A DNA stretch of 64,000 bases from positions 2,549-66,548 of IMG/VR virus record IMGVR_UViG_3300037467_001397; one strand, given 5' to 3'. This DNA comes from a virus. Under the pieces are notes generated by a model. The model worked only from the letters and a program-made list of their open reading frames with translations, did not search any database and was not told the origin of the DNA. The position numbers and the translations under genes are program-made. Every line of letters begins with the position of its first letter. Position 1 is the stretch's first letter. Below, in pieces: positions 3,428 through 17,217 of this stretch.

Positions 3428-3666
3428 GGGGATCTCCGAAAAATGGCCGCTGGTGGCCGTCTCATGCCCCGGGGCACATATTCCCTGCCCGGACCGCTCG
3501 TCGCCGCCCTTGGCCCGTTTCTGTGGATTCTACGGCCTATCCGTGCGCGCGGGCGTCCATACGTGCGCAGATGCGCGCTCGGATCGCCAGAATTGGCCCG
3601 TGGCGGCGTTCGTGCGGTTTCAGGTGCCGTTGGACGGTTCTCGGGCGTCGGGCGCCTACGGGCTTC

Positions 3667-3864
3667 CTAATGGATTTCCGGCTCTTTGCGCTCGTGCGCC
3701 ACGCAACCGAAGTCGTCGAAGGTCGTCAGGGCGCCGTGCCCCGGGCCGACCGGGACGCGCTCGTCCAGGCTGCCGCACCGCCCGCGGGGATGCTTGGGCT
3801 CCTTCTCGCCCTCGATCGCGCGGTCCTCCGGGCGCCAGAACTTGCAGGTCGAGCAGGTCGGCAT
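3667..3864 (-). CDS. Small Cys-rich (CxxC...C...C) protein
   Basis: MPTCSTCKFW...GRCG...FGCVAH; ATG at 3864 directly follows a copy of the GCGTGACGGAG leader. Confidence 0.6.
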   Translation of the reverse strand: MPTCSTCKFWRPEDRAIEGEKEPKHPRGRCGSLDERVPVGPGHGALTTFDDFGCVAHERKEPEIH

Positions 3865-3904
3865 CAGGGGCTCCGTCACGCGATGGGTCTGGTATTTTTT
3901 CGGG

Positions 3905-4126
3905 TCAGGCAAACAGCGAAGGCCGCCACCCCGGCGACCGGCTGTTGAACTCGCTCGCCGGCTGAACGCGCGGCAAAGGCGCCTCCACCTTGCGGATCGT
4001 GCGCATCACGTAGCTCGTCACCGCCGCCAGGTCGCCCGCGTACAGGACCGCCTTGTCCCGGCCGACGACCGTGTAGCCGCCGTCACGCGCCGCCTCGATG
4101 GTCAGGCGGTCAGGAGTGTCGGACAT
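3905..4126 (-). CDS. Hypothetical protein
   Basis: 73 aa; start preceded by the shared leader/RBS. Confidence 0.65.
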   Translation of the reverse strand: MSDTPDRLTIEAARDGGYTVVGRDKAVLYAGDLAAVTSYVMRTIRKVEAPLPRVQPASEFNSRSPGWRPSLFA

Positions 4127-4310
4127 CAGAGGGCTCCGTCACGCGCGTAGGGTGGTTTTTTGGGGCGCGGGCACCGGGTCGAACGGTCAACCAGGGCTAA
4201 GGAGGCCGATCGCTCCCCCATACAGCCGGCGGTCAGCCTCTCCAGTGAGGCCGCCCTCGCGCTTTGCGCAGACGGATTTCGGGCCTCGTCACGCGCGATG
4301 TGTGGATTTT

Positions 4311-4577
4311 TCAGACCTTCCGACGCACAATCGCAGCTATGGCCTGCTCGGCTGTCGGTGCTGGGGTGATCTTGGCGGTCTCGGCATCCAGGCTGCCGTT
4401 GCGGCGCGGATCGAGCCAATCAGCCTTTGGCGTACAGGCGAACGCTTCCAGCATACGAGCGGCCAAGTCTGGGCACATCTCCATCGCGTGTCCGTAAGAC
4501 ACCCCGAAGTACATGAGCGCCACGACGACGTCTGGAGCGTAGTGGCTCCCGATGGTCTCTTTCGAATCCTCGGCCAT
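4311..4577 (-). CDS. Hypothetical protein
   Basis: ATG at 4577 (MAEDSKETIG) follows the shared leader/RBS GGAGG. Confidence 0.55.
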   Translation of the reverse strand: MAEDSKETIGSHYAPDVVVALMYFGVSYGHAMEMCPDLAARMLEAFACTPKADWLDPRRNGSLDAETAKITPAPTAEQAIAAIVRRKV

Positions 4578-4978
4578 CAGGACCTCCGTCACGCGCGATG
4601 TGGTAATTTTTTCCTAGCCGTCACACACGAGGTGTGCTGTGCGGGGTGGGGTGCGGGCCCAGGCGCGCTCGACCCACACCATGGGGGGGGTGGTCGCCGG
4701 CCTCCCCTGCCTGCCGACGGCAGCCGGCGCCCGCTGTGCCACTAGGCTCAAGACCATGAGGCACGACCGTGCCAAAAGCCCCGATCCGACCCGTGTGGCA
4801 CGGTGCGAGGGCATGCGGCAGGCCGTGCCACTAGAGCCTGCCTATTGGCGCAGTGATTCCGACAGAGGGGCCTGCGCTGCATTGCAGCAATGTGAAGCAG
4901 AACGATGAAAAATATTGGCTTGAAAGCAGTGATCGATGCCGTAATAGAGGCACATATCATCATGCTTGTGGGAACAGA

Positions 4979-5365
4979 ATGTCTAAATCCCGTGATCCGA
5001 TGGTTGCTGCCGAAGCAAGGCGGCTCACCCCATACTGCAAGCGGTGCGGCACACCCAGGGCGCTACACGCGCACCATGTGGTGCCAATGGCAGACGGTGG
5101 CGCCGATGCTGTCGAAAACATCGACGTGCTATGCGAGCGGTGCCACAATGAATGGCACTACCTGCTCGAGGGAGTTGTGCCGTACGATCGCTTCTTCGAA
5201 ACCATTCCCGCGCACATTCTGCAAGCGATGCTGCTGTCAGACGAGGGGCGGCAGCTCTCGCTTGAGCACATTCACGGCGCTTGGGTGGAGTACAGCGTTG
5301 GGCGCGTCGGATTCTATGTGAGCGACGCGCTTCGGGAGGCGTTCAGCACCGGCGCCGCCAAGTAG
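4979..5365 (+). CDS. HNH endonuclease
   Basis: CKRCG..LHAHHVVPMADGGADAVENIDVLCERCHNEWH, a canonical zinc-binding HNH; adjacent to terS. Confidence 0.85.
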   Translation: MSKSRDPMVAAEARRLTPYCKRCGTPRALHAHHVVPMADGGADAVENIDVLCERCHNEWHYLLEGVVPYDRFFETIPAHILQAMLLSDEGRQLSLEHIHGAWVEYSVGRVGFYVSDALREAFSTGAAK

Positions 5366-5373
5366 AGCACAGG

Positions 5374-5985
5374 TCACAGCACAGGCTTGTCGGGGCCAGG
5401 CTCATCCGGGGCGATGACGGTCGCATCCTGCTTGATCGTCGACGCCGCGTCGGTGTGGTCGCCCGTGAGCTTGGTAGCGTCCACCGAGAACGCCTTGGGA
5501 AGGAAGCGTTCCATAAGCCATTTCCGGACTTCGACCCGTGCCTTCGAGCGCTCGACCGCCTCCCTATTGAGACGGGTCTCGGTCGCACCGCCGAACGTGC
5601 GCTTTTCCTCCCAATCGTTCGAGCTGTCGTCAATGATCCGCACGATGATGTCGGCTTGCGCGGTCGCCCAGGACGCCCTTGCGCGCGTTAGGTCCGACGA
5701 AAAAGACTCGTCGCGCTGCGCCCACTTCATCACCGTCGTGCGCTCCGGCATGTGCGGGCTGTCGCACACATCCATGAGCGTCTCGCCCGCACCGATGCGC
5801 TGTAGCAGCTCTGCGCGGACCTCTGGCGTCATCACCGACGGCCGACCGCCCGTGCTGGGCAGTGTCGCGGCGACGGCCCCCGTCGCTTCGGCATGCCGCG
5901 CCGCCTTGCTCTTGGTGGTCCGCTTCGCCTTGGGCGCGTCGCTGGCAACAGCCGGCGCCGTCGCCGGCCTCTTGGTGCCAGCCAT
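5374..5985 (-). CDS. terS: Terminase small subunit (Sf6 gp1-like)
   Basis: HTH (ELLQRIGAGETLMDVC..MPERTTVMKW), F..ARA..ADII.IID.S.ND, and AVERSKARVEVRKWLMER..PK, typical of this TerS family. Confidence 0.8.
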   Translation of the reverse strand: MAGTKRPATAPAVASDAPKAKRTTKSKAARHAEATGAVAATLPSTGGRPSVMTPEVRAELLQRIGAGETLMDVCDSPHMPERTTVMKWAQRDESFSSDLTRARASWATAQADIIVRIIDDSSNDWEEKRTFGGATETRLNREAVERSKARVEVRKWLMERFLPKAFSVDATKLTGDHTDAASTIKQDATVIAPDEPGPDKPVL

Positions 5986-6043
5986 CCGCTCATCTCGCTT
6001 GTGTGGTTGCGCGGCTCGAGCCGCATCGAGCGGCGTCGCCGCT

Positions 6044-6583
6044 TTCTGAGAATTCTAAGAGATTTCTAAGAAAATTCTGAACGTTCGTTCAGAAACAGGC
6101 CATTTACGGCAGCTACGGCAGTTCGTACGGCAGTTCGTTTTAGCCTGGTGCCGTACTGCCGACCCCTTGATCTTAAAGGGAAACGTGCCGCGAAACTCGG
6201 GACCAAAACCGGTACGGCACTTAGAACGCCTATTACCGCTCTACACGGGGAATAAATGCGGGCCCGCGCAACCGCGGCGTGCAGGCGCGCCCCTTTCCTA
6301 TTTTTCTCTCACCCGTGGAGTAAGAGAAAAACTGCCGTACTGCCGGAACCCCCGAGGGCGGGGCGGTGAACTCCTTGCGGATCAACGACTTGGCGGAACG
6401 GCACTAGCTCCGGACCAACTGCCGTACGAACTGCCGTAATGCAAAACGGTGCCGTAATCGCTTTTCCGTTGCGGTTCGCCGCACCACGCTCTTGACGGTG
6501 GAAAACCGCAACACCATTCTCTGTTGCGCAGCCTAGCTCGGCCCAACTGCCGCCGCTCGGCTTCCTAAGAGATTTCTAAGAAA
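6044..6583. repeat. Repeat-rich intergenic region (candidate packaging site or origin)
   Basis: Perfect 22-bp inverted repeat 6114-6135/6417-6438; nine copies of (C/G)TGCCGTA or its complement; 19-bp direct repeat CTAAGAGATTTCTAAGAAA at 6055-6073 and 6565-6583. Confidence 0.85.
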
Positions 6584-6596
6584 CCGGAGCGCGACC

Positions 6597-7136
6597 ATGG
6601 TAGCGACACGCCCGCCGACGATGCAGGAGCTTTTGGACTCGAAGGGCCACGACACGGTGTCCCGCGTCATCGGGTTCCGGCGGGACAGTCCGACGATGTC
6701 GGCAACGGCCATTGCCATGTGGCTCAACATTTCGCCGGCTCGCGTCTCAAAGATCCTTCGCGATGCTGGGATGCCGAAACAGTCCATGGCCGAGAAGCGC
6801 CGTCTACGGCGCGATGCAAAGGCCGGCGTTCGGGTCACGCGCTCGACCGCGCTAGAGTCCGGACATGAGTTCGCCTGCATCGTGCGAGAGTTGGGCCTCT
6901 CGATTGAGGAGGCTGCACGCTTGTTCGGGCGCGATGCCGCGACCATCCGCAGCTACTGCACCGGCAAGCGGGTTCCGCCGTACATGGCGCGGTTCGCCTA
7001 TCTCGCACTGGCCCTTGGCACCGACAGGGCGCGGGAACTCATGCGCCAGGGGCGCACGATGGCGCAGGGCGCGGTCGCCAAGAAAAAAGCAAAAACGCTC
7101 TCGACCCCTGTTGACACCAGAGAATCATCTCGCTAA
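6597..7136 (+). CDS. Tandem double-HTH DNA-binding protein (paralogue of 11176..11616)
   Basis: HTH1 SATAIAMWLNISPARVSKIL; XRE-like HTH2 LGLSIEEAARLFGRDAATIRSYCTG. Confidence 0.75.
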   Translation: MVATRPPTMQELLDSKGHDTVSRVIGFRRDSPTMSATAIAMWLNISPARVSKILRDAGMPKQSMAEKRRLRRDAKAGVRVTRSTALESGHEFACIVRELGLSIEEAARLFGRDAATIRSYCTGKRVPPYMARFAYLALALGTDRARELMRQGRTMAQGAVAKKKAKTLSTPVDTRESSR

Positions 7137-7139
7137 GTT
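7111..7139 (+). promoter_or_regulatory. Sigma70-type promoter P1
   Basis: TTGACA-N17-TAAGTT with upstream A-tracts. Confidence 0.85.
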
Positions 7140-7182
7140 AGCTTCATCGCCACCGGGCAGCAGCCCAACGGGAGACACGGAA

Positions 7183-7338
7183 ATGACCAAGATGATCACC
7201 AAGCTCTTCGCTGACCGGGTCGAGGTCCAGAAGCGACGCTTTATGAACGGCTACACCGTGATGCGGATCACCACTACCTGGAGCGGCAAGGTCCGCTCAG
7301 TCGAGGTCCTCGAGAAGAAGATCCTCTGGACACTCTGA
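7183..7338 (+). CDS. Small basic hypothetical protein
   Basis: 51 aa after P1, leader and GGAG RBS. Confidence 0.7.
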   Translation: MTKMITKLFADRVEVQKRRFMNGYTVMRITTTWSGKVRSVEVLEKKILWTL

Positions 7339-7384
7339 GGGGCTCCGGCCCCTCCCCTTCCCTCATCTCGCACGGAGCAGACCA

Positions 7385-7501
7385 ATGACCTTCTACCGCT
7401 TCATTCTCCCCGCCGGCGGTGTCCTGGATCTCGACTTCCGCACCGGTGAGCAGGCCGCGGCGCATGCCGACTACCTGCGGGCTCGTTTCTTCAAGCTGTG
7501 A
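7385..7501 (+). CDS. Small hypothetical protein (38 aa)
   Basis: Manual translation MTFYRFILPAGG...FFKL; GGAG RBS. Confidence 0.5.
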   Translation: MTFYRFILPAGGVLDLDFRTGEQAAAHADYLRARFFKL

Positions 7502-7526
7502 CCCGAAAAAACTTCACTCGGCCTAG

Positions 7527-7555
7527 TTGACACCACCAAACCAATCGGCTAACTT
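7527..7555 (+). promoter_or_regulatory. Sigma70-type promoter P2
   Basis: TTGACA-N17-TAACTT with upstream A-tract. Confidence 0.85.
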
Positions 7556-7596
7556 ACACCCATCGCAACCGGGCAGCAGCCCAAGGAGATACGGAA

Positions 7597-7899
7597 ATGG
7601 CCAACGTCGACGACCCGCACATGATCTCGGATGAGGCTCTGGACGCGCTCTATAGTGACGAGGACACGCTGGCCCGCGCCTTCGCCTGCGAGCATACCGG
7701 CGAGATGACGCGCGAGACCTGGGAGCGCATCCAGGCGGACAAACCCGCTCAGGCGCGGCCCTTCCTGCTCGCCATGAAGCGCGGGCGCTACCGTGAGACC
7801 GGCGCGTACACGCAGGCCGTCCTGGGGGCTCGCATGGCCAACAAGCGGCGGCCAAAGCCGCGCCTGATGGCTGGCCCATGGTGCGGGTGGCGCTCCTAA
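7597..7899 (+). CDS. Hypothetical protein
   Basis: 100 aa; AAGGAG RBS after the leader. Confidence 0.75.
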   Translation: MANVDDPHMISDEALDALYSDEDTLARAFACEHTGEMTRETWERIQADKPAQARPFLLAMKRGRYRETGAYTQAVLGARMANKRRPKPRLMAGPWCGWRS

Positions 7900-8006
7900 C
7901 CAAGACCGAAACCTAGGGAGGGCCAACCCTCCCGACGGTCGCACCGTGACGCGGTGCCTGATGAGGTCACGCAACCGGGCAGCAGCCCACAATCGGAGAC
8001 ACGACA

Positions 8007-8183
8007 ATGCGCGCTCGCGACTACTGCGCCCATGTGGCGGCCTACTATGACCAGGACGCCCAACGCCTCGCATTCAGCTCAGATCAAGCGGCTTACGATC
8101 GCGCTTGGGCGAAGGCTTGGGCTTGGCATCGCCGGGCGGAGAAGGGGATCTTGATCGGAGCATGGCTCGGCCGGGCGGCATAG
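8007..8183 (+). CDS. Small hypothetical protein (58 aa)
   Basis: Manual translation MRARDYCAHV...WLGRAA; leader copy plus GGAG RBS. Confidence 0.6.
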   Translation: MRARDYCAHVAAYYDQDAQRLAFSSDQAAYDRAWAKAWAWHRRAEKGILIGAWLGRAA

Positions 8184-8214
8184 CCTGTCATCGAAAAAAC
8201 TTCGCTTGGCCTAG

Positions 8215-8243
8215 TTGACACCAAGCGATCACTTCGCTAAGTT
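8215..8243 (+). promoter_or_regulatory. Sigma70-type promoter P3
   Basis: TTGACA-N17-TAAGTT with upstream A-tract. Confidence 0.85.
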
Positions 8244-8284
8244 AGATCTATCGCAACCGGGCAGACGCCCTAGGAGATACGAAG

Positions 8285-8524
8285 ATGGCCAAGCACCCCA
8301 CCATCAAGCTCACCGTCCTGGCCGGCGAGGGCTACATTGTCGAGAACGGCGGCGATGTCGGCAACAAGGTCTTTCACTTCCTGATGGGGATGAGCCGCAA
8401 GGGTTGGCTCGGCCGCGTCGCCTCAATGAAGGGTCACGGCCTGTACCTGGCCGGGATCGATCGGCTGGCCGGCTTCAAGGCGTACTGCGAGGCGCAAGGC
8501 TTCGTCGTGGTCACCTCTGCCTAG
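8285..8524 (+). CDS. Hypothetical protein
   Basis: 79 aa; AGGAG RBS after the leader. Confidence 0.75.
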   Translation: MAKHPTIKLTVLAGEGYIVENGGDVGNKVFHFLMGMSRKGWLGRVASMKGHGLYLAGIDRLAGFKAYCEAQGFVVVTSA

Positions 8525-8618
8525 ACCCATCGCCTCGAGGCCGTGCGCACAACGCGGCCTCGCACGATGTGCCTAGCTCACATCACACCGCAACCGGGCA
8601 GACGCCCCAGGAACGATC

Positions 8619-8723
8619 ATGACAGCCATTATAGCAATCGCGCTCGCATGCGCGGCGACCGCCACCGGTGCCCTCTGGGCGGCGGGTCATACCTACCTCA
8701 ATCTGAAGCAGGGGGACCGCTAA
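8619..8723 (+). CDS. Small membrane peptide (34 aa)
   Basis: MTAIIAIALACAATATGALWAAG hydrophobic stretch; leader copy plus AGGA. Confidence 0.55.
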   Translation: MTAIIAIALACAATATGALWAAGHTYLNLKQGDR

Positions 8724-8724
8724 C

Positions 8725-9057
8725 ATGCGCGCCATCCTGCTAGCCGGCATCGCCGGCCTGATGACAGCTGGCGCGGTCGCGGTCGCACAGCCGCAGGTCG
8801 GCCCGTACTGGGAACCCACCGAAACCTACATGCAACGCCAGTTGCACGGCTACCCTCGCGCCTACTTCATGAACCAATGGGGCGGCCTGAACGATTGCCG
8901 ACGCGCCGCGACCGACACAGAGGTGGAATGGTGCGCCGGCGAGTTGCCGGCCTCATCCTCCGCCAACCCCGCGCGGTTCGATTGCCGTAAGGCTGAGGTG
9001 GATGCGGAATACCGCTACTGCCGCAAGCCGTTCCCGCATCGCGTTCCGGCCCGGTGA
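8725..9057 (+). CDS. Secreted Cys-containing hypothetical protein
   Basis: Signal-peptide-like N-terminus ending AVA; four Cys. Confidence 0.7.
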   Translation: MRAILLAGIAGLMTAGAVAVAQPQVGPYWEPTETYMQRQLHGYPRAYFMNQWGGLNDCRRAATDTEVEWCAGELPASSSANPARFDCRKAEVDAEYRYCRKPFPHRVPAR

Positions 9058-9061
9058 CGCC

Positions 9062-9178
9062 ATGCACGCGCAAACGACGATTGAGATCCTGTCCTATAGC
9101 TCTGGCGTGCTCACGACGTGCGCCATGCTGTTCCTGGCATCGGCCGCGCTCGCATGGCGCATGCGGTACGATCCCTAG
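9062..9178 (+). CDS. Small membrane peptide (38 aa)
   Basis: Manual translation with one hydrophobic helix (VLTTCAMLFLASAALAW). Confidence 0.4.
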   Translation: MHAQTTIEILSYSSGVLTTCAMLFLASAALAWRMRYDP

Positions 9179-9224
9179 GCCGGAAAAAAACGACGGGCCC
9201 CGCAACTTTTTTGTCGGGGCCTAG

Positions 9225-9253
9225 TTGACACTATGAAACCAATGAGCTAAGTT
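9225..9253 (+). promoter_or_regulatory. Sigma70-type promoter P4 (ardA)
   Basis: TTGACA-N17-TAAGTT. Confidence 0.85.
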
Positions 9254-9298
9254 ACATCCATCGCAACCGGGCAGCCGCCCAACGAAGGAACCGCCCCG

Positions 9299-9871
9299 AT
9301 GACCGCTCCCCGCTTCTACGCCGCCTGCCTCGCCAGCTACAACAACGGTGTCCTGCACGGCACCTGGATCGATGCCAGCACGGACACGGATGAGATGGCG
9401 GCCGCTATCGCCGAGATGCTCCGCGCCTCGAAGTTCCCGAACGTGACCGTCGAGCATCCCGAGACCGGCGAGATGGTGCCCAGCGCCGAGGAATACGCGA
9501 TCCACGATTATGACGGCCTGCCGTCATCGTTCGGCGAGTACCCCGGCCTCGACAAGATCGCCGAGTATGTCGAGCTGCTCGAGGCGGCCGAGGATCGCGG
9601 CATGCCGGCCGAGATGGTCGCGAAGGTGGTCGACAACTTCGGCGGCGACATCGGCGAGGCGAAGGAAGCGATTGAGGACAAGTTCTGCGGCGTTCACGAC
9701 AGCCTTGAAGCCTACGCCGAGGACTACATTGAGTCGACTGGCATGCTCGACGGCGTCAACGACACGATCGCCCGGTACTTCGATTTCCAGGCGTTCGCCC
9801 GGGACCTCGAGCTAGGCGGCGATATCTGGACCATCCGGCACGAGGGCGATTTGTACGTCTTCAGCGCCTGA
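9299..9871 (+). CDS. ardA: ArdA-family antirestriction protein (DNA mimic)
   Basis: YAACLASYNNGVLHGTWID, EEYAIHDYD and RYFDFQAFARDL..GD motifs; very acidic. Confidence 0.92.
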   Translation: MTAPRFYAACLASYNNGVLHGTWIDASTDTDEMAAAIAEMLRASKFPNVTVEHPETGEMVPSAEEYAIHDYDGLPSSFGEYPGLDKIAEYVELLEAAEDRGMPAEMVAKVVDNFGGDIGEAKEAIEDKFCGVHDSLEAYAEDYIESTGMLDGVNDTIARYFDFQAFARDLELGGDIWTIRHEGDLYVFSA

Positions 9872-9875
9872 CACG

Positions 9876-9906
9876 AAAAAAACGAGCGGGGCCTCAAAAC
9901 CCCGCT
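9876..9906 (-). terminator. Intrinsic terminator facing the minus strand, overlapping P5
   Basis: Stem AGCGGGG/CCCCGCT (9885-9891/9900-9906) followed on the minus strand by a T-run; a similar hairpin lies at about 9184-9221. Confidence 0.5.
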
Positions 9907-9934
9907 TGACACCACAAAATCAATCGGCTAATAT
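9906..9934 (+). promoter_or_regulatory. Sigma70-type promoter P5
   Basis: TTGACA-N17-TAATAT. Confidence 0.85.
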
Positions 9935-9980
9935 CCAAACATCGCAACAGGGCAGCAGCCCAACGGAAGGAACCCGATCG

Positions 9981-10397
9981 ATGCCCGCTCAGACCGCCAC
10001 CGCCGTCAACCCCGCCACCCTCGCCAGCATGCTGGGCGGCTACATCCGCTGCGCCCTGTGGTCCTCGACGGACAACAGCGATCCGGAGACCGGCGGCGAC
10101 CCGATGGATCAGAACTACAGCCGCGAGGACCTGGCCCCGCGCACCCTGGATCGGCTAGAGCGCGACTGCGCCGCTTTCCTTGCCAAATTCCGGGACATGC
10201 TGGCCGAGCAGCCCGGCGACGCTGAGCAAGCCGGACATGATCTGTGGCTCACTAGGAACGGCCACGGCACCGGCTTTTGGGATCGCGGTGACGATGTGTG
10301 GACGGCGGAAGCCCGCAAGGCATTCAACGCCTACGCTAACCGCCTCGCCCCGCGTGATCTGTACGTTGGTGATGACGGCATGATCTACGTAATGTGA
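9981..10397 (+). CDS. Conserved-looking phage hypothetical protein
   Basis: ATG at 9981 after the leader and AAGGAA; YIRCALWSS..DC.AF..QAGHDLWLTRNGHGTGFWDR motif. Confidence 0.75.
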   Translation: MPAQTATAVNPATLASMLGGYIRCALWSSTDNSDPETGGDPMDQNYSREDLAPRTLDRLERDCAAFLAKFRDMLAEQPGDAEQAGHDLWLTRNGHGTGFWDRGDDVWTAEARKAFNAYANRLAPRDLYVGDDGMIYVM

Positions 10398-10496
10398 TCG
10401 GCCGCCTAACCCGCCACAACGCACCGTTCTCCCCATCGCCCCAGATGGGGAGCGCCGTGCGCTGAAGGTCGGGGCACGAAACCGGAGGATAGGACG

Positions 10497-10775
10497 ATGT
10501 TCTACATCTACAACGAGACTTTCGGCTCTGTCGCTCGCCGCGAAGAACTGACGGGCAAGATCGCGAACCGCTGTTGGATCGATGTCGGTCCAACCTGGAA
10601 CAACCAAGCGCCGCCCCGCGCCTACGCCTCGGACGACATCAAGGATTTCTACGCGCAGGTGAGCAAGTACGGGTGCCAGTGGGCCGGGAAGATTGCTCAC
10701 GCCCTGGAAGAGAAGGGGCTGATCGGGACGTTCACGACCGACGACGAGGGCGATCTGGTCGAGATCAACGCCTAA
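10497..10775 (+). CDS. Hypothetical protein
   Basis: 92 aa; GGAGG/AGGA RBS. Confidence 0.7.
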   Translation: MFYIYNETFGSVARREELTGKIANRCWIDVGPTWNNQAPPRAYASDDIKDFYAQVSKYGCQWAGKIAHALEEKGLIGTFTTDDEGDLVEINA

Positions 10776-10800
10776 CCATCAGCAAACAGGAGACACGACA

Positions 10801-11163
10801 ATGCCGCTCAATCTCTCAGATCTCGAACAGCATGGCCTAGGCTACGTTGCCGAATTGGTCCGCGGCGGCCGCTACGTTCCCGACAGCGTTCTAGTTCCGG
10901 CCGGCGAGGGCCGCTACCAAGAGGCGCTTATGGCATACCACGACTGGTGCTTGACGGACGCATGCCGCGAGTTCGCCAACGATGTGCTCGACAACGTTGC
11001 AGAGTATGGCGGCTGGAAAGACCCGACCGATCGGGCCGAGGTTCGTGAGTACCTCGATTCCGCCTGGGCGGATCATGAGAACTGGCGCGAGATGAGCGAG
11101 GACGAGCGCCGCTCAGCAGCTCGCATCACTGCGCGCATGGTCCGCGACCGGCTAGCTAACTAA
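10801..11163 (+). CDS. Hypothetical acidic protein
   Basis: 120 aa; RBS context GGAGACACGACAATG is identical to that at 7995-8009. Confidence 0.75.
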   Translation: MPLNLSDLEQHGLGYVAELVRGGRYVPDSVLVPAGEGRYQEALMAYHDWCLTDACREFANDVLDNVAEYGGWKDPTDRAEVREYLDSAWADHENWREMSEDERRSAARITARMVRDRLAN

Positions 11164-11175
11164 GGAACCCCACCC

Positions 11176-11616
11176 ATGTCCACAGCAGACCAGATCATCG
11201 CCCTGGCCAAAGTCGCCAAGGGCAAGAACACATCCGCCATCGCGGACGATCTTGGCATATCGCGCGAGCGCGTGCGCCAGGTCCTGAAGGCCAACGGCCT
11301 GAAGTCGGATTTCCGCGGCGAGATCCCGGCGCGGCGTCGGCCGGGCCCGGTGAAGCGGTTCGAGGAACGCGCGCCCTTCGGACAGGTGCTCGACCTGCTC
11401 GGCCTCACCAATGAGCAGGCGGCCGATCTGGTCGGCGCGCATCCGGTCACCGTGGCCAAGTATGCCAACGGCACGTCAACCGCACCGGAGGCCATGCAGC
11501 TCTATCTGCTGGCCTGCCTCGGGCTGGGCGTCGACACCGTGCAAGCGGCTGTGGATGCCGGCCAGCGCAAGCTCAAGTCAGCAGTTGACACGGCCAAACA
11601 AGGCGCTAAGATCTAA
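11176..11616 (+). CDS. Tandem double-HTH DNA-binding protein (paralogue of 6597..7136)
   Basis: HTH1 NTSAIADDLGISRERVRQVL; HTH2 LGLTNEQAADLVGAHPVTVAKYANG. Confidence 0.8.
   Translation: MSTADQIIALAKVAKGKNTSAIADDLGISRERVRQVLKANGLKSDFRGEIPARRRPGPVKRFEERAPFGQVLDLLGLTNEQAADLVGAHPVTVAKYANGTSTAPEAMQLYLLACLGLGVDTVQAAVDAGQRKLKSAVDTAKQGAKI
11585..11612 (+). promoter_or_regulatory. Sigma70-type promoter P6 (recombinase)
   Basis: TTGACA-N16-TAAGAT inside the 3' end of the upstream gene. Confidence 0.75.
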
Positions 11617-11654
11617 CCATCGCAACCGGGCAGACGCCCAGAGGATACCAGACC

Positions 11655-12203
11655 ATGCTGATCGGCTACGCCCGCACCTCCACCGCCGAGCAAGTCGCCG
11701 GCTTCGAGGCACAGATCAGAGACCTGAAAGCGCTCGGCTGCGAGAAGATCTTTCAGGAACAGGTGTCATCGGTCGCGTCGCGCGCACAGCTCGAGGCGGC
11801 GCTGGACTTCGCCCGGGAAGGTGATGCGCTTGTGGTGACCAAGCTCGACCGCCTTGCGCGATCGATGCGCGATCTGCTCGACATCGTGGCCCGGCTCGAG
11901 CGCAAGGGCGTTGCCCTGCGGATCCTGGCCATGAACCTCGACACGGCCACACCTACGGGCAAGCTGATGCTGAACGTGCTCGGCAGCGTCGCCCAGTTCG
12001 AGCGGGAAATGATGCTCGAGCGCCAGCGCGAAGGCGTCGACAAGGCCAAAGCCGCGGGCAAGTACAAGGGCCGTGCGCCGACCGCGCTCGCCAAGTCCGC
12101 CGCGGTCCTGGCGCTCAAGGCCGAAGGTCTAGGCGCGGCAGAGATCGCGCGGCGCGCCGGCATTTCCCGGCGGAGCGCATACCGGATTTTGGAGGCGCAG
12201 TGA
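11655..12203 (+). CDS. Small serine recombinase (resolvase/invertase family)
   Basis: GYARTST catalytic Ser, VVTKLDRLARS, EREMMLERQREG, C-terminal HTH; 182 aa, no large-serine-integrase domain. Confidence 0.95.
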   Translation: MLIGYARTSTAEQVAGFEAQIRDLKALGCEKIFQEQVSSVASRAQLEAALDFAREGDALVVTKLDRLARSMRDLLDIVARLERKGVALRILAMNLDTATPTGKLMLNVLGSVAQFEREMMLERQREGVDKAKAAGKYKGRAPTALAKSAAVLALKAEGLGAAEIARRAGISRRSAYRILEAQ

Positions 12204-12424
12204 TGGCGAAGCGAAAGCCCGAACCCGCCGCGCCACCCGCCCACTATCCGAGCGATGCCGCGGACAGGATACAGCTCCGCCTTCCCGGCGAGCTGCGCGA
12301 TCTGATCCACAAAGTCGCGAAACAGAACTACCGATCGGCGAACAATGAAATCGTCTATCGCCTGATCAAGAGCCTCGAGGCAGACGGCTTTCGTCTGCCA
12401 GAGGCTGAAGAGGATGCCGCGTGA
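12200..12424 (+). CDS. Arc-like ribbon-helix-helix repressor
   Basis: DRIQLRLPGELRDLIHKVAKQNYRSANNEIVYRL. Confidence 0.85.
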   Translation: MMAKRKPEPAAPPAHYPSDAADRIQLRLPGELRDLIHKVAKQNYRSANNEIVYRLIKSLEADGFRLPEAEEDAA

Positions 12425-12753
12425 CCACACCCGAAAAGAACAAGGCCGAGCTGTGCCAGGAATTCCGGGCAGGGCTCGCGCTCCTGAACATGAGCCTGTC
12501 CGAGTTCTCGAACCTGACCGGCTTGCGGTACGACACGGCCAAGAACTTCTACCAGGGCGACAGTATCCCGTCATCGATGGCGCTGTTCTGTCTGCGCCTG
12601 ATGGTGTGCTGGAATATTGATTGGCTGGCCGCGGGTGCGATCAACTCCCCCCGCGGCGTCGACCTGCGAGAGATCGCGAAGCGGCGCCTCGATCCGGAGG
12701 TGTATGACGAGGAGGTGTTGTTTCGTCCTCGGCCAGCATCTCCAGGAAGGTAA
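12421..12753 (+). CDS. XRE-like HTH protein
   Basis: FRAGLALLNMSLSEFSNLTGLRYDTAKNFYQG. Confidence 0.6.
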   Translation: MTTPEKNKAELCQEFRAGLALLNMSLSEFSNLTGLRYDTAKNFYQGDSIPSSMALFCLRLMVCWNIDWLAAGAINSPRGVDLREIAKRRLDPEVYDEEVLFRPRPASPGR

Positions 12754-12782
12754 GAGGCACTCTGCGGGGCGCCTCGACCACC

Positions 12783-13034
12783 TCACGAACTGAGCTTGAC
12801 GCCGCGGTATTTCTTGGCGAGTCGCTGGCAATACTTGAGGAACACTTCGCTGTCGGGCTTTTGGCCCGCAACGAGGCACGCTGCGAACGATAGGGCGGCA
12901 GAAACCGCTTCCGCACTATGGCCATCCTCCAGCGCATCGGACGACGCGGCGATGAACGCCGGGATCAAGTGCGAGATCTCATCCGAGAACGGCGAGCCGT
13001 CGACCGGGATGCTGATCGTCACGGGCTGGTGCAT
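12783..13034 (-). CDS. Hypothetical protein
   Basis: 83 aa, plausible composition. Confidence 0.5.
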   Translation of the reverse strand: MHQPVTISIPVDGSPFSDEISHLIPAFIAASSDALEDGHSAEAVSAALSFAACLVAGQKPDSEVFLKYCQRLAKKYRGVKLSS

Positions 13035-13045
13035 CCCGGTATCCC

Positions 13046-13456
13046 TTACCGTGCAGCGGCGAGAACCTTGCGCGCATAGGCGGATGAGCGGCGGCGGGTT
13101 CCGAGCCCGGCGTTGTAGGCGGTTGCGGCCGCGCTCCAGTTGCCATGCGAATGCGCGAGAGCGGCGCGCAGGTAGAGCACGCCGGCGGTCGCACCGGTGC
13201 GGCAGTCCCGGAGGTTGCCATGAACCCCGACGCTGCGGGCCGTGGCCGGCTTGACCTGCATCAGGCCAAGCTCGCCGGCCCGGCCGACCGCGCGGCAGTT
13301 AAACCGCGTCTCGACATGAGCGACGCCCAGCGCCAGCGGCGCCGGCACGCCGAAGCGGTGCGCGATCTCGCTGACCATTGCCCGAAGATCGAGCGCATGC
13401 GCGGGGGATGCGGCGCACAGAGCGAGCGCCGCAGCGACGAGGCTGCGTTTGAGCAT
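13046..13456 (-). CDS. Lytic transglycosylase (SLT domain) with signal peptide
   Basis: VAHVETRFN catalytic Glu, GELGLMQVKPATAR, AYNAG; N-terminal signal ending AHA. Confidence 0.9.
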   Translation of the reverse strand: MLKRSLVAAALALCAASPAHALDLRAMVSEIAHRFGVPAPLALGVAHVETRFNCRAVGRAGELGLMQVKPATARSVGVHGNLRDCRTGATAGVLYLRAALAHSHGNWSAAATAYNAGLGTRRRSSAYARKVLAAAR

Positions 13457-13844
13457 CGGGGATCCTGATCAGCGGGCGCGCTGGCAACGTGGCGCGGGAT
13501 GGCTCCGAACGGGGAGGCGTTGAAGGGGGTGGTGGTTTCGGTGGGGCACCCAATGCGGTGTGCCTGATGAAGCGCTGAACGCTCCGAAGCGGGCGAGCCG
13601 AGGGCGCCGTGCTCTTCCCAAAAGGCCGCGTTACCGTGACCTGCCACCGAACTTGTGAGCCCGAGACCCCAGACCAGCGGCTAGGCTGGCCCGGGGCTTC
13701 GCGCTGATGCGAACCCGCAAAGCGGGGGCGACACCGGAGAGTGCTGTCCGATGCCGCCCGCGCTCAGCGGCGCTTGCCGGTCTCGGTGTCGATGACGACC
13801 GTCTGACCGGTGAGCGGATTAAGGATCGAGATGAGCGCCATCGG

Positions 13845-14042
13845 TCAGATCCCTTGCATGGGCTGAGCGTAGGCGCGCAGCGGGGCTTGGAATTGTTGCA
13901 GGGCGCGCGAGTCCACCGGCGGCGGATTAAACGCGCCTGCCCTGGCGAGTCTCAGGTACTCGCGGGCCGGGATGTACCCGGTCTCGACCAGGTACCGAAC
14001 CGTCTGCCGACAGAGCGGCGGACATCTCTCTGAGGACAGCAT
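13845..14042 (-). CDS. Hypothetical protein
   Basis: 65 aa ORF only. Confidence 0.35.
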   Translation of the reverse strand: MLSSERCPPLCRQTVRYLVETGYIPAREYLRLARAGAFNPPPVDSRALQQFQAPLRAYAQPMQGI

Positions 14043-14132
14043 CGGGCACCCATGTCAGAGAGAGGGCGTACATTTCCGCCATGGAGATCCAGAGCGAAAC
14101 GAGCTGATCGAGGGTCACATCCTGGCGGGGCA

Positions 14133-14294
14133 TCAATCGGTCCGCACGCGGATGGCTTTCAGCAGCTCGGCGGCGGTGCCGCGCTCGATCGCGTTCGTGC
14201 CGGCATGCGCGACGGCCTCGAGCAGCCGCTTCAGACTGCGGAGCTGTGCGGGCGTGACGCTGAGCAGGATCGCGCGGGCGATATGGTCGAGCAT
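14133..14294 (-). CDS. Small hypothetical protein
   Basis: MLDHIARAILL...; start overlaps the stop of the upstream ORF. Confidence 0.5.
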   Translation of the reverse strand: MLDHIARAILLSVTPAQLRSLKRLLEAVAHAGTNAIERGTAAELLKAIRVRTD

Positions 14295-14389
14295 CACCGC
14301 CCCTGGCGGCGTGCGACGCCCAGAATGATCGCGAAGGTGCCGGCGAGCATGATCGAGGCGAGCATGAACATGGACAGGGCCTCGATCAT
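14294..14389 (-). CDS. Small membrane peptide (31 aa)
   Basis: MIEALSMFMLASIMLAGTFAIILGVARRQGR. Confidence 0.45.
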   Translation of the reverse strand: MIEALSMFMLASIMLAGTFAIILGVARRQGR

Positions 14390-14400
14390 GCCGGATGCCT

Positions 14401-14601
14401 CTAGGATGGCTTACGGTGCTCGCACAGCGTCTTGGCGTAGGTGTCGGGTGCCAGACCATCGCGGGCCGGGATTGCCTGCCCTGCGGCCATACAGGCGTAA
14501 GGCGTGGGCACCGGCTGCGTCTGGACGTCGAGCGCGGTCTGGCGCGTGCAGGCGTCCGGCGACAGGCTCGAGGCGCAGATCAGGATGACGGCGAGCAGCA
14601 T
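14401..14601 (-). CDS. Small secreted Cys-rich protein
   Basis: MLLAVILICASSLSPDAC...PYAC...LC; GGAGG RBS. Confidence 0.6.
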   Translation of the reverse strand: MLLAVILICASSLSPDACTRQTALDVQTQPVPTPYACMAAGQAIPARDGLAPDTYAKTLCEHRKPS

Positions 14602-14927
14602 CACGCCTCCTTCAGTCCGGAGACCGCGACGCACCTGGCGCCGACCTTCAGGTACGGGCGCGGACCCTTGAACGCTTGGGCGCGCAGGAACGCGGCGGCC
14701 TCGTCCTGGATGATCTCGGCGCGACCGTCGCAGGCATACTTGCCGCCCCAGAGATTGGCGGGCGTGCGGATCTGCCGGCAAACCTTCTCGCCGCAGACCT
14801 CGAGGCGGATCCGGTAGCCGATCGTGGCGGCGTGGGCGCGCTCGATCGTGAAGACGAGCAGCTCGCCGGCCGCCAGGACCAGCAACACCATGGCGAAGCG
14901 GACGAGCAGCTCGCGATAAAGCATCAC
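14601..14927 (-). CDS. Membrane-anchored or secreted hypothetical protein
   Basis: N-terminal hydrophobic helix; four Cys. Confidence 0.55.
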   Translation of the reverse strand: MMLYRELLVRFAMVLLVLAAGELLVFTIERAHAATIGYRIRLEVCGEKVCRQIRTPANLWGGKYACDGRAEIIQDEAAAFLRAQAFKGPRPYLKVGARCVAVSGLKEA

Positions 14928-14947
14928 GCACCTCGCGCGCTCGGGCG

Positions 14948-15049
14948 TCAGAAGCGGGTCGAGCAGGTCCAGGCGATGAGCGCGAATACGATGGCCACGC
15001 CAACGACCGCGGCGCCGATGAAGGCGAGGAAGGCGGTGACGAGCGCCAT
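14948..15049 (-). CDS. Small membrane peptide (33 aa)
   Basis: MALVTAFLAFIGAAVVGVAIVFALIAWTCSTRF. Confidence 0.45.
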   Translation of the reverse strand: MALVTAFLAFIGAAVVGVAIVFALIAWTCSTRF

Positions 15050-15052
15050 GGG

Positions 15053-15244
15053 CTAGCCCCGCAGCTTCACGACGTTGTTGACGACGACGGTCAGTTCCGG
15101 GCGGCCGTGCAGCCCCTTGATCAGCTCGTCGAGCAACTGAAACTGGGGCTTGTCGCGCAGGTCGGCATCGTCTGCCATCTGCGTCGTCAGCGTGGCCCAG
15201 AGCCGTTGCAGGTTGTGGATGCGTTCGGTCTGGGTCATCGGCAT
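15053..15244 (-). CDS. Hypothetical protein
   Basis: 63 aa; GGAGG RBS. Confidence 0.65.
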   Translation of the reverse strand: MPMTQTERIHNLQRLWATLTTQMADDADLRDKPQFQLLDELIKGLHGRPELTVVVNNVVKLRG

Positions 15245-15254
15245 CAGCCTCCGA

Positions 15255-15500
15255 TCAAAAGTGACGACGCACCCGCACCAGGCTCTGGTTGAGATTGGCG
15301 AGGGCGTAATCCCAGGCCGCCTCGCGGGTCGGCCAGCGCTTGGCGCGCGCCTTCTCGACGCTCCAGGGATTGGGCCGGGCCCAGTCCGCGTAGAAGAGCG
15401 GATCGGAGATGTCGGAGGCGGCGTGCTCGATCAGCCAGAAGGCGCGCGGCTTGTGCGCGTCGGCCCAGGCATCCGCGGCCGCGGCCGTGACCTTCGCCAT
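15255..15500 (-). CDS. Hypothetical protein
   Basis: MAKVTAAAAD start overlaps the upstream stop; Trp-rich. Confidence 0.6.
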   Translation of the reverse strand: MAKVTAAAADAWADAHKPRAFWLIEHAASDISDPLFYADWARPNPWSVEKARAKRWPTREAAWDYALANLNQSLVRVRRHF

Positions 15501-15613
15501 CAGCCGATGCTCAGCGCGTGCGTGATGTAGGCGTCGAGGTAGGCGTGCAGGCCGAACAGGCCGCAGAAGACCGCAGACGAGGCCGCCGCGGCGTAGAAGG
15601 CGAGCTTGCGCAT
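15500..15613 (-). CDS. Small membrane peptide (37 aa)
   Basis: MRKLAFYAAAASSAVFCGLFGLHAYLDAYITHALSIG. Confidence 0.5.
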   Translation of the reverse strand: MRKLAFYAAAASSAVFCGLFGLHAYLDAYITHALSIG

Positions 15614-15619
15614 GACGGT

Positions 15620-16098
15620 CTCGGGAGATGGGGCAGAGAACCGGGACCATTATCCCGGCCTTACATCAGGGCGACGCCCCCTCGCGGAAGCCGCACTCTG
15701 CATGCCGATGCGGGATCGCCGGGCGCCGGATACCAGCAGGGTACGGCCGCATCGAATAAGGTCGGTCAGAGGCGCGGACTCTTACTGTCCGGCGGATGTT
15801 GTTCCGGCGTGACCGATAGGATTGACGCTGGCCGGCGCTAAACTCGGCTTCTCCCCCGCCGGACAACACAGCAGGGGCGACGGGGGCATTCCGTCCTCAG
15901 CGACAAGAGATTGATGCCAGCTTTCAACGGGTCAATCGGGCAAGACCCCCGCATCGCGCCGGCATCAAACTTGGAATTTCATGGGATCGCGAAGGCATAG
16001 CTTCGCACTTGCGGTCGAGGCGCGCTCCGATCGGGCTGCGCAACGACGGTTCTGTGGGCACTTCGAGGCGTAAGCCTTCTGGCCGCTACGAACTCACA
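15620..16098 (-). ncRNA. Candidate structured leader or ncRNA (about 480 nt)
   Basis: No convincing minus-strand CDS between the promoter at 16105-16132 and the first ORF; inverted repeats TTGATGCC/GGCATCAA (15911-15968) and GTCCGGCGG/CCGCCGGAC (about 15786/15856). Confidence 0.4.
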
Positions 16099-16104
16099 CC
16101 AGCA

Positions 16105-16132
16105 AGTATATGTACGTCGCCGAGCCTGTCAA
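16105..16132 (-). promoter_or_regulatory. Strong sigma70-type promoter
   Basis: Minus strand TTGACA-N16-TATACT, with an AT-rich block upstream (16144-16200). Confidence 0.75.
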
Positions 16133-16339
16133 GCCTGTTGTCGTTAAGAAATTCTTCTCATAAAGTTGAAACTGTTAAATAAAACTAAGTGTATATACAC
16201 GTATTCGGACGCGACAATGCTTGCACGATAGCCGCATCGGGCCGGCGCGCAAGCGGCTATGCGTACAGGAAGGTGGAGGCGTAGACGATCAGAGCGACCG
16301 TGACGTAGCCGGCGGTGGTGCGGACGACGTCGAAGGCGT

Positions 16340-16498
16340 TCACGGTTTAACCGCCTTTAGTTCGGCGAGCTGTTTGCGCACCCACGCCATATCGCTACGG
16401 GCGAGGCGGATGGTGTCCTCCAGTCGCTTGAGCCGGAGGAGGAGCTGCAAGCGGCGCCAGTTGCGCTCCTGCCTGGCCGCAAGCTCCTCGGGGCTCAC
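16340..16498 (-). CDS. Small coiled-coil protein
   Basis: Manual translation MSPEELAARQERNWRRLQLLLRL...; GTG overlaps the stop of the NusG-like gene. Confidence 0.5.
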   Translation of the reverse strand: MSPEELAARQERNWRRLQLLLRLKRLEDTIRLARSDMAWVRKQLAELKAVKP

Positions 16499-17217
16499 GC
16501 CGTCGCCTCGGGCTGCGGCATCGGCCGAAGCATGCTCACCGGCACGCGCATGATGCCGGCCGACTTGAAGTGCCGCAGGACCACGCCGGCCTCGTCGTTC
16601 AGGATCTTGACGACGTCGACCTCGGCGCCCGGCAGGAACGTGCCCTCGCCGAACTGCGCGACGTCGCCGAGCTTGATCCCCGTGGCTGTGACCACTACGG
16701 GCTCGGGCTCGACCGCGGGCTTCGGCAGGTCTTCTTTGCCGCCCTTGAACCCGCCGAAACGCTCGCGGTCGGCCAGCTTGCGCAGGTCATCGGCAGGGAT
16801 AGCCAGCGGCTTGCCGTAGTTCGACAGCACGCCCGAGATGTCATCGTTGAACCGGATCGCGACCCAGTTCGTGCGCTCATCGGTGCCGATGAACAGGATC
16901 GAGCCGAACAGCGGGCGCTGCGCCTCCTCCTTGACGTTCGAGCGGGCGCGGAATGCCCAGCGCGTCTCGACCGGGCAGTAGGTGGTGATCCTGGCGCGCT
17001 TCATGGCGGCCAGCACCCGGCGATGCGTGCCGGGCTTCACCACCATGGCGTACCACGTCAGGTCGTTGGTGATGGCGGGCGGCGAGATCCGTTCATCCTC
17101 GTCGAGCGGCACGTAGCGCACCTGCGCGGCGACATAGGGCGCCTCGATGCGGGAGTTGTGCTGCGGGGTCGCCTTGGCCTCAAGCTTCTTGCGGATCTGG
17201 TTCAGCTTGTTCGCCAC
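16495..17217 (-). CDS. NusG/RfaH-family antitermination factor (NGN plus KOW-like)
   Basis: WYAMVVKPG...TYCP...RPLFGSILFI NGN motifs; C-terminal IKLGDVAQFGEGTF KOW-like segment. Confidence 0.8.
   Translation of the reverse strand: MANKLNQIRKKLEAKATPQHNSRIEAPYVAAQVRYVPLDEDERISPPAITNDLTWYAMVVKPGTHRRVLAAMKRARITTYCPVETRWAFRARSNVKEEAQRPLFGSILFIGTDERTNWVAIRFNDDISGVLSNYGKPLAIPADDLRKLADRERFGGFKGGKEDLPKPAVEPEPVVVTATGIKLGDVAQFGEGTFLPGAEVDVVKILNDEAGVVLRHFKSAGIMRVPVSMLRPMPQPEATA

Follow-up and report, generated by a model that had tools for sequence, protein, structure and literature searches.

A repeated promoter-leader module in an ArdA-carrying gene array of an uncultivated high-GC soil phage

Genetic organization of the array

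The DNA analyzed here, hereafter designated as the window, is a 64,000-nucleotide stretch (bases 2549-66548) of the 71,155-bp IMG/VR virus record IMGVR_UViG_3300037467_001397, which carries a 114-bp terminal repeat. Between 6597 and 12753, it contains an array of 17 small rightward open reading frames (ORFs), including a gene for the anti-restriction protein ArdA, in which a promoter and a 22-nt leader recur in front of successive genes. All 17 ORFs are supported by their GC content at third codon positions (GC3, 0.71-0.89) and by a Shine-Dalgarno (SD) motif. A GC3 map of the region revealed leftward genes up to 5985, the last of which is terS (small terminase subunit gene; 5374-5985, - strand), a 600-bp repeat region, the rightward genes at 6597-12753 and convergent leftward genes from 12783 onwards; the array thus makes up the rightward half of a divergent arrangement beside terS. 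Large ORFs matched PHROG families for phage tail sheath, baseplate, primase and helicase, and the phage appears to be a myovirus-like member of an uncultivated group, with a high-GC genome of about 71 kb from a soil metagenome. PHROG scans of about 30 ORFs returned no hallmark of T4-type phages and, over the same set, neither an integrase nor a partition gene, and BLASTN searches identified no related sequence among isolated phages. The array was compared with those of the only two full relatives, the sister phages G001 and G002 of IMG/VR, both of which come from one metagenome. Its features are as follows.

6597-7136, + strand: g0, a double helix-turn-helix (HTH) protein (Pfam HTH_31 and HTH_3), the 3' end of which holds P1
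7111-7166, + strand: unit P1, with its -35 at 7111, the end of its -10 at 7139 and its leader at 7145-7166; cargo g1 (7183-7338) and g2 (7385-7501)
7527-7582, + strand: unit P2, with an A6 tract 15 nt upstream, GGCCTAG and its leader at 7561-7582; cargo g3 (7597-7899)
7967-7988, + strand: promoterless leader with two GC hairpins on its 5' side; cargo g4 (8007-8183)
8215-8270, + strand: unit P3, with its leader at 8249-8270; cargo g5 (8285-8524), an ORFan
8586-8607, + strand: promoterless leader after a hairpin at 8536-8562; cargo g6, g7 and g8
8619-8723, + strand: g6, one transmembrane helix; kept in G001, missing from G002
8725-9057, + strand: g7, signal peptide, Cys-rich; kept in both sister phages
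9062-9178, + strand: g8, transmembrane; kept in both sister phages
9184-9280, + strand: unit P4, with an A7 run, a GC hairpin (9196-9221), GGCCTAG, its promoter at 9225-9253 and its leader at 9259-9280
9299-9871, + strand: ArdA, 190 amino acids (PF07275, E 3.2e-39)
9876-9961, + strand: unit P5, with an A7 run, a hairpin (9885-9906) overlapping the -35, its promoter at 9906-9934 and its leader at 9940-9961
9981-10397, 10497-10775 and 10801-11163, + strand: g10, g11 and g12, the cargo of P5
10414-10499, + strand: intergenic element of 86 bp, with hairpin arms at 10417-10437 and 10444-10464 (21 nt, 81% complementary) and an SD before g11
11176-11616, + strand: g13, a double-HTH protein (Pfam: N-terminal sigma-r4/HTH_23-like, C-terminal XRE-like) with P6 in its 3' end
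11585-11639, + strand: unit P6, with its promoter at 11585-11612 and its leader at 11618-11639; the resolvase gene lies directly behind
11655-12203, + strand: small serine recombinase (Pfam Resolvase, PF00239, 8.5e-42)
12200-12424, + strand: Arc-like ribbon-helix-helix (RHH) protein (Pfam Arc, 5e-11)
12421-12753, + strand: g16, with which the rightward array ends

Promoters and upstream elements

The six predicted promoters have their -35 elements starting at 7111, 7527, 8215, 9225, 9906 and 11585, all on the + strand. The initial annotation had described them as sharing the pattern TTGACA-N16/17-TAANNT, and a search of the 64-kb window returned these six sites and no other, compared with 0.01 expected from shuffled sequences. 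A relaxed pattern applied to the full 71-kb genome added just two sites, both on the - strand. The spacer had also been described as ending in GC; this dinucleotide is present, but it belongs to the -10 box of alphaproteobacterial RpoD promoters and is not a feature of the spacer. The consensus established for Caulobacter RpoD is TTGaCgS / GCtANAWC (PMC8144410), and the -10 boxes of the array fit its second half. Overall, the promoters fit an alphaproteobacterial type, with the near-consensus form TTGACA-N16/17-GCTAAnnT expected for a host RpoD.

The GGCCTAG motif noted upstream of the -35 in P2-P4 was found as described. A-tracts had been attributed to P1-P5 as one common feature; they are indeed present, but are of two different kinds. 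In P1-P3 and their counterparts, a run of A5-6 ends 15 nt before the -35, at the position expected of an UP element. In P4 and P5, a run of A7 lies 5' of a GC hairpin abutting the -35, a hairpin that was found neither at P1-P3 nor at P6. Both hairpins are without a U-tail on the + strand and have a T7 tail on the - strand, where the P5 structure (9906-9885, 9 pairs, then T7) is the best terminator-like site of the region; GC hairpins also stand between many of the cassettes. Other details differ from one unit to the next. A perfect 8-bp inverted repeat (TCGCTTGG / CCAAGCGA) surrounds the -35 of P3 only (8202-8228). P1 and P6 lie within the 3' ends of the two double-HTH genes, where TTGACA encodes Val-Asp-Thr and the stop codons of g0 and g13 fall in or just past the -10 box.

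The 22-nt leader

As annotated, one 22-nt leader begins exactly 5 nt past the -10 box of all six promoters. A search with its 19-mer core (CGCAACCGGGCAGCAGCCC, up to 3 mismatches) detected eight copies on the + strand (7148-11639), compared with 0.11 expected. Two of these, with cores starting at 7970 and 8589, were absent from the initial annotation; they occur without a promoter, and the g4 and g6 start codons follow 18 nt and 11 nt downstream. Promoter and leader copies are all confined to 7111-11639. In both-strand searches, no sequence complementary to the leader was found apart from a leader-like 19-mer at 26476-26494 (- strand), which has 2 mismatches and a loop without A and lies 27 nt before ORF 25994-26449; since a pattern search identified no counterpart in G001, this match is probably due to chance.

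Together, the three phages carry 20 leader copies, 15 promoter-linked and five promoterless, all in sense orientation and ending 6-20 nt before a start codon. The predicted +1 coincides with the leader start in all 15 promoter-linked copies. The GGGC/GCCC stem is invariant over the 20 copies and encloses a variable loop (AGCA, AGAC, AGCC, AGAT, AATC or AACC). The five promoterless leaders are as well kept as the others, each just before an SD, and one of those in G002 begins 2 nt past the preceding stop codon. RNA folding predicted a 4-bp hairpin in nearly every copy, leaving the SD unpaired, and an Rfam covariance search of 3500-17500 returned no family for the leader at E<=1. A leader-like element was also detected in Logan contigs carrying a relative of g3, just after a stop codon and 5' of that gene. 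With its longer stem (CGGGGC/GCCCCG) and UUCG loop, this element, a 3-mismatch match from one lineage, fits an RNA hairpin. Because the leader is kept independently of the promoter, we tentatively favor a role at the RNA level, where it might serve as a shared 5' untranslated region (UTR) for stability or translation, or as a common target for shut-off. Whatever its role, it is a defined small element that occurs in promoterless copies too and shows signs of concerted evolution within a genome (see below).

Sister phages and exchange of cargo

Scanning viral contigs for an exact 15-mer of the leader revealed one contig with four copies, G001, which was the one real relative among 84 stretches; its 68,921-bp genome has five leader copies, all located in a syntenic array. 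G002 was identified by an ArdA search (70,369 bp) and has seven copies, in the array only. In genome and metagenome contig collections, the matches listed for the leader pattern were single scattered chance ones, with no relative and no host among them. A Logan fragment was also recovered in which a g13 homologue (59%) is associated with the resolvase gene; the promoter is kept inside the 3' end of g13, and the leader is different.

The two sister phages carry the same scaffold with different cargo. G001 shares g2, g6, the C-terminal part of g7, g8, g13, the resolvase, the Arc-like gene and g16. Whole-genome TBLASTN found no counterpart for 9 of the 17 array genes (g0, g1, g3, g4, g5, ArdA, g10, g11 and g12), in place of which G001 has four other ORFs. 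G002 keeps g2, g7, g8, ArdA behind the same unit, g13, the resolvase and g16; five other ORFs occur elsewhere in its array, and g6 and the Arc-like gene are missing from the 8.5-kb piece screened. Behind P6, both sister phages have one extra unrelated small ORF between the leader and the resolvase gene. The g2 product is kept at 95% amino acid identity in G001 and 74% in G002, where its gene lies directly behind the first promoter-leader, and g13 is kept in all relatives (90% in G001, 48% in G002 and 59% in the Logan fragment), and its product is a candidate regulator. As for g0, it is a distant paralogue of g13 that is absent from both sister phages (TBLASTN in G001), with a 26% match to the g13 homologue of G002. 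The set formed by g0, P1 and g1 occurs in this phage only and resembles a duplicated or imported g13-P6 arrangement.

Nucleotide homology between the window and G001 is organized in blocks (7382-7600, 8523-8738, 8846-9308, 10414-10499, 11162-11650 and 11640-12213). Those running through P2, P4 and P6 end at 7600, 9308 and 11650, at most 10 nt from the start codon behind the leader, and others start at stop codons (8523 and 11162). P2 is 96% identical to its G001 counterpart despite different cargo. The pattern is one of conserved pieces composed of an anchor gene, a promoter and a leader, followed by a variable slot that opens at the ATG. The block at 10414-10499 is 95% identical in G001 even though its flanking ORFs there are unrelated, and looks like a third kind of portable gene junction. 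The initial annotation had viewed the scaffold both as an expression unit and as a recombination boundary for swapping cargo, a proposal supported by the different cargo of the sister phages, by breaks located at the leader and ATG or at stop codons, and by the chimeric unit described below. The alternative that it had contemplated, relatives with identical gene content and order, is not what was observed.

Traces of recombination between units

Where the window has P4, ArdA and P5, G001 has a single promoter unit and no ArdA. Left of the leader, this unit agrees with P4 at 23 of 26 informative sites, and its hairpin, with a T-run in the loop, is of the P4 type. From the leader loop rightward, 10 of 16 sites agree with P5 (9 of 11 when counted up to alignment column 159), and this part takes in the first five codons of g10. 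The crossover maps to a stretch of about 8 nt in the leader. Exactly such a chimera would arise from recombination of the P4 leader with the P5 leader, with loss of ArdA and of the P5 promoter, and the reverse event would insert both. The locus offers a clean natural example of a cassette, that of ArdA, which is found in two phages and is absent from a third exactly between two copies of the module. In G002, as in the window, the P4-type hairpin and promoter precede ArdA.

Units of the window are 86-96% identical to their positional counterparts in G001. Those of G002, leaving out the unit in the 3' end of g13, are 76-86% alike among themselves and 58-76% identical to window units; two of them are apparently identical from the -10 box through the leader. 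Being closer to each other than to their positional counterparts, they indicate concerted evolution. The loop AATC is found in 6 of the 7 G002 leaders, whereas AGCA, AGAC, AGCC and AGAT occur in the window and G001. Such within-genome homogenization is indicative of gene conversion between copies, of co-evolution with a leader-reading factor, or of both.

ArdA and the other cargo genes

The presence of ArdA, proposed from the translation of 9299-9871, was confirmed by a match to PF07275 covering profile positions 2-150 of 155, from which anti-restriction activity is predicted. The protein is very acidic (isoelectric point 4.1, net charge -28), and its counterpart in G002 has 84% amino acid identity. 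The initial annotation had extended this function to the whole locus by referring to a counter-defence array; beyond ArdA, the designation found no support, as no other ORF was linked to counter-defence by a Pfam or PDB match and g10 matched only a PHROG of unknown function. There are 11 array ORFs without a match to a named family, several of the small ones having been searched in part of Pfam, PHROGs and PDB only. Pfam and PHROGs returned nothing for the other cargo except phrog_1915 (unknown function) for g10, and PDB sequence searches returned nothing for g3, g5, g10, g11 and g12. The ESM Atlas provided nothing usable for g11 and g12, and unnamed viral clusters only for g10, while g5 had no relative among 5.8 billion proteins. 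A confident AlphaFold2 model of g10 (mean predicted local distance difference test score, 87) matched no solved fold in PDB and uncharacterized AFDB clusters only.

Relatives of some cargo genes occur in other genomic contexts. A g3 relative (84%) occurs in a prophage-like region of the Methylobacterium komagatae chromosome (L501, 10001-10291), without the array scaffold and next to P22 antirepressor-like and Arc-like genes. It is the only host clue available for this phage, which probably infects an alphaproteobacterium, possibly one near Methylobacterium. Two unrelated phage contigs, each about 82 kb long, have homologues of g10 and of the G001 gene Gc, together with G001 Gb in one case, no more than 4 kb upstream of their ArdA genes (L456, 245-2297, with Gb; L475, 2414-3067), which suggests, by guilt by association only, that these genes travel in ArdA neighborhoods.

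The genes common to all three phages encode small membrane or secreted proteins, the double-HTH regulator and the resolvase, and are not obvious anti-defence genes; g6-g8 look more like exclusion or envelope functions. With 11 unknown ORFs here and nine in the sister phages, the arrays nevertheless supply a list of candidates for counter-defence or host takeover. The scaffold might also be used as a tag, an ORF found behind this promoter-leader in related metagenomic phages being a likely exchangeable accessory gene with a host-type promoter.

Comparison with known systems

The closest parallel is provided by the promoter-early stem-loop (PeSL) cassettes of T4-type phages, which combine strong sigma70-type promoters with stem-loops in hyperplastic regions of small non-essential ORFs of unknown function (Arbiol 2010, PMC2839356; Comeau 2014, PMC4122927). 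PeSL modules border insertions, deletions and replacements between close relatives, and recombination of nearby copies removes the intervening gene (PMC2839356, PMC4122927). The array likewise has a repeated promoter that is strong and sigma70-like as judged by sequence alone (six copies versus 0.01 expected), whose copies are grouped in a variable region of small uncharacterized ORFs and border indels and replacements between relatives, as illustrated by the breakpoints at the leader and ATG and by the P4/P5 chimera. A GC stem-loop abuts the -35 in P4 and P5. In contrast to the PeSL systems, the array belongs to an unrelated high-GC soil myovirus, has unrelated sequences and uses promoters of an alphaproteobacterial type. 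Its best-conserved part is the transcribed 22-nt leader with its small hairpin rather than a terminator stem-loop, and this leader also occurs alone, without a promoter. Because PHROG scans gave no sign of a T4-type phage and the promoter-linked terminator is only partly matched, the array is best regarded as an analogue of PeSL with a variant design, not a homologue; the design itself is not new. The PeSL principle, in which reused regulatory modules act as seams for gene shuffling, would in this way extend to uncultivated high-GC soil phages.

Anti-restriction genes are under shared control in two plasmid systems. In the IncN plasmid pKM101, the repressor ArdK is reported to bind conserved upstream (CUP) elements of the leading region (Delver and Belogurov 1997, as cited in PMC6289460). 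The likeness lies in a repeated conserved element 5' of several small genes including ardA, and co-regulation at DNA entry would be shared; the setting differs (a plasmid versus a phage), no sequence likeness is apparent, and the array has candidate repressors only. In the Bacillus plasmid p576, promoters of anti-restriction and neighboring genes share a motif recognized by the RHH repressor Reg576, which is encoded within the regulon and produces a burst of expression followed by shut-off (PMC6294495). The array also has an RHH gene, the Arc-like one, near its end; the p576 motif, however, consists of a dual heptamer located at the promoter, G002 lacks the Arc-like gene, and binding here is putative. 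The nearest known promoter-independent, start-linked repeats are the SAS/ESAS elements of Cluster K mycobacteriophages, a short asymmetric sequence of unknown function found in one orientation just 5' of the start codons of many unrelated genes, partly with an inverted repeat (PMC3203893). They differ from the array leader in sequence and host, are distributed genome-wide rather than tied to sigma70 promoters, and have no demonstrated role in gene exchange (PMC3203893).

A further pair of systems combines exchangeable genes with control elements or a recombinase. The morons of lambdoid prophages, described by Juhala et al. in 2000, are said to be additional genes that lie between conserved ones and have a promoter of their own and a hairpin downstream. 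Array units are likewise inserted between conserved genes, with their own promoters and, in several cases, a hairpin behind them; morons, however, occur singly with individual regulatory sequences, whereas the array reuses one module in tandem. Integrons resemble the array as a row of exchangeable small genes beside a recombinase. This candidate was rejected: the recombinase is a serine resolvase (PF00239) and not IntI, no attC or 3' repeat was found, each unit has a promoter, and the joints are not at a fixed site.

A more distant lineage provides a last comparison. Two contigs, L425 (963-2894) and L426 (1691-3624), have three promoters each with a conserved spacer, TTGACNGCCTAGGC..GCCTANAT, in a sequence of 57% GC encoding an ArdA that is 51-53% identical. 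An operator-like inverted repeat (CTAGGCC / GGCCTAG) embraces their -35, and the GGCCTAG found before P2-P4 in the window looks like one half of it. As these promoters combine a conserved spacer with another leader hairpin, the general design seems wider than the leader sequence described here.

Proposed function and alternative explanations

Taken as a whole, the array is likely to be a rightward accessory region in which a chain of short transcription units reuses one regulatory module that also serves gene exchange, in the manner of a PeSL-like hyperplastic region. The module would consist of an A-tract fixed 15 nt from the -35, in a UP-like position, or a GC hairpin instead; a near-consensus host RpoD promoter (TTGACA-N16/17-GCTAAnnT); the 22-nt leader, starting at the predicted +1 and containing the GGGC-N4-GCCC hairpin; and an SD located 2-8 nt beyond the leader. 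Host RNA polymerase could read such promoters without a phage factor, so that ArdA and its neighbors could be made once the DNA is in the cell, at an immediate-early stage as the host-type promoter consensus would suggest. In the mRNA, the leader may provide a 5' hairpin and an open ribosome site for stable and efficient expression, or a common handle for post-transcriptional shut-off. As repeats of 60-90 bp, the modules would offer homology for recombination, both within the genome and between co-infecting relatives, by which genes behind the leaders could be deleted, inserted or replaced, as the comparison with the two sister phages illustrates.

Several observations weigh against this interpretation. 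Mosaicism is not specific to the array, since only 55% of the whole genome aligns with G001, and about 40% of the array does so by a tally of the blocks. At several breakpoints there is just a start or stop codon and no repeat nearby, so that illegitimate recombination and selection would account for part of the pattern. The breakpoint of the G001 chimera was chosen after inspection of the data, and its Fisher p value of 0.0013 is post hoc and indicative only. Gene absences in G002 refer to the 8.5-kb piece. Beyond the 4-bp hairpin, the leader and UTR fold no better than shuffled sequences (z about 0), and the stem, being invariant across the three phages, offers no covariation by which the hairpin could be tested. 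In L425 and L426, the hairpin is placed otherwise and the promoter spacer is the conserved part. Finally, a search of sequencing runs found DNA of the phage in the source soil metagenome only and in no RNA run, and promoter activity, start sites and timing are predictions.

The invariant stem could also be understood at the DNA level. The leader would then be a putative operator, GGGC-N4-GCCC being bound at about +10 to +22 by an array-encoded repressor (g13, g16 or the Arc-like protein), and the array would fire on entry before shutting itself off, as in the CUP/ArdK or Reg576 systems. This is a genuine possibility, compatible with cassette exchange, but we doubt that it is the correct one. 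The 12-bp dyad core with its variable centre is fixed 5 nt from the -10 in 15 of 15 promoter units, the candidate regulators are under the same promoters, which would give autoregulation, and g13 is present in every relative. Homogenization of the loops in each genome fits co-evolution with a specific binding factor, both plasmid precedents govern anti-restriction genes, and the palindrome round the -35 in the L425/L426 lineage is clear. An operator is nonetheless difficult to reconcile with the five equally well-kept promoterless leaders, always just before an SD and in one case 2 nt past a stop codon, with the conserved CGCAAC flank outside the dyad, and with the lack of the Arc-like gene in G002. 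Along different lines, the units might be prophage-expressed morons, independent promoter-gene units for host benefit or exclusion rather than lytic early genes. In favor of this view, every unit carries a host-type promoter of its own, and GC hairpins follow several of them; the conserved products of g6-g8, small and either membrane-bound or secreted, are of a kind typical for exclusion; the array includes genes for a resolvase, an Arc-like protein and XRE-like regulators; and the g3 relative lies in a Methylobacterium prophage region. We nevertheless find this unlikely, as the ORFs scanned included no integrase or partition gene, ArdA is of use only at DNA entry, and strong unregulated promoters in a lysogen would require a repressor.

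Two further alternatives assign the leader to a specific protein encoded nearby. The serine recombinase behind P6 could cut and join at the leader dyad in an integron-like cassette system; a resolvase-type recombinase is indeed located at the array end in all three phages, cargo begins right behind the leader, and the P4/P5 crossover of G001 falls within the dyad. Such a system is very improbable, however: the dyad is just 12 bp long, its centre differs among copies of one genome, which would block serine-recombinase exchange, most homology runs past the leader through the SD to the ATG, with no single fixed position for the joints, a tyrosine integrase, an attC-like 3' site and a single common promoter are all lacking, and the chimera is explained by plain homologous recombination. 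We see hardly better prospects, if any, for the more general idea that the leader is a dedicated cis-element read by a phage factor, whether a serine recombinase using GGGC-N4-GCCC as its crossover site (a serine-recombinase "integron" for counter-defence genes) or, in a milder form, one RNA- or DNA-binding protein switching the array; in its favor, the loops are homogenized per genome, the P4/P5 crossover lies inside the dyad and promoterless leaders exist. It is just as hard to believe in the leader as a loading site for a phage NusG paralogue, comparable to ops for RfaH or to the LoaP leader hairpin, that would enable transcription to continue through the hairpins from one cassette to the next. 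The gene for a NusG-domain protein lies at a distance of 5 kb (16495-17244, - strand; Pfam 1.5e-10), the small leader hairpin is close to the transcript start, and GC hairpins separate many cassettes; yet short units with their own promoters hardly need antitermination, long operons have no leader copy in front, and +10 to +22 is unusually near the promoter for this class.

Other elements of the genome

A second leader family is found at 3860-4620 on the - strand. It consists of an A-tract and ACCAC-ATCGCGCGTGACGGAG, located 5-7 nt from the ATG, with no -35 or -10. Four copies were recognized by eye and three by pattern search, and G001 and G002 have these leaders at the corresponding, syntenic position. 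Behind the first copy, the two sister phages have one and the same gene and the window has a different one, so that the leftward arm also shows kept leaders with swapped cargo. On the other side of the array, a sub-threshold match to the Rfam skipping-rope RNA (RF02924) was detected at 15823-15905 on the - strand (33.2 bits versus a gathering score of 36.7, E 1.5e-4, full model length), in a gene-free stretch of roughly 480 nt downstream of a strong - strand promoter (16132-16105) and of the NusG-like gene.

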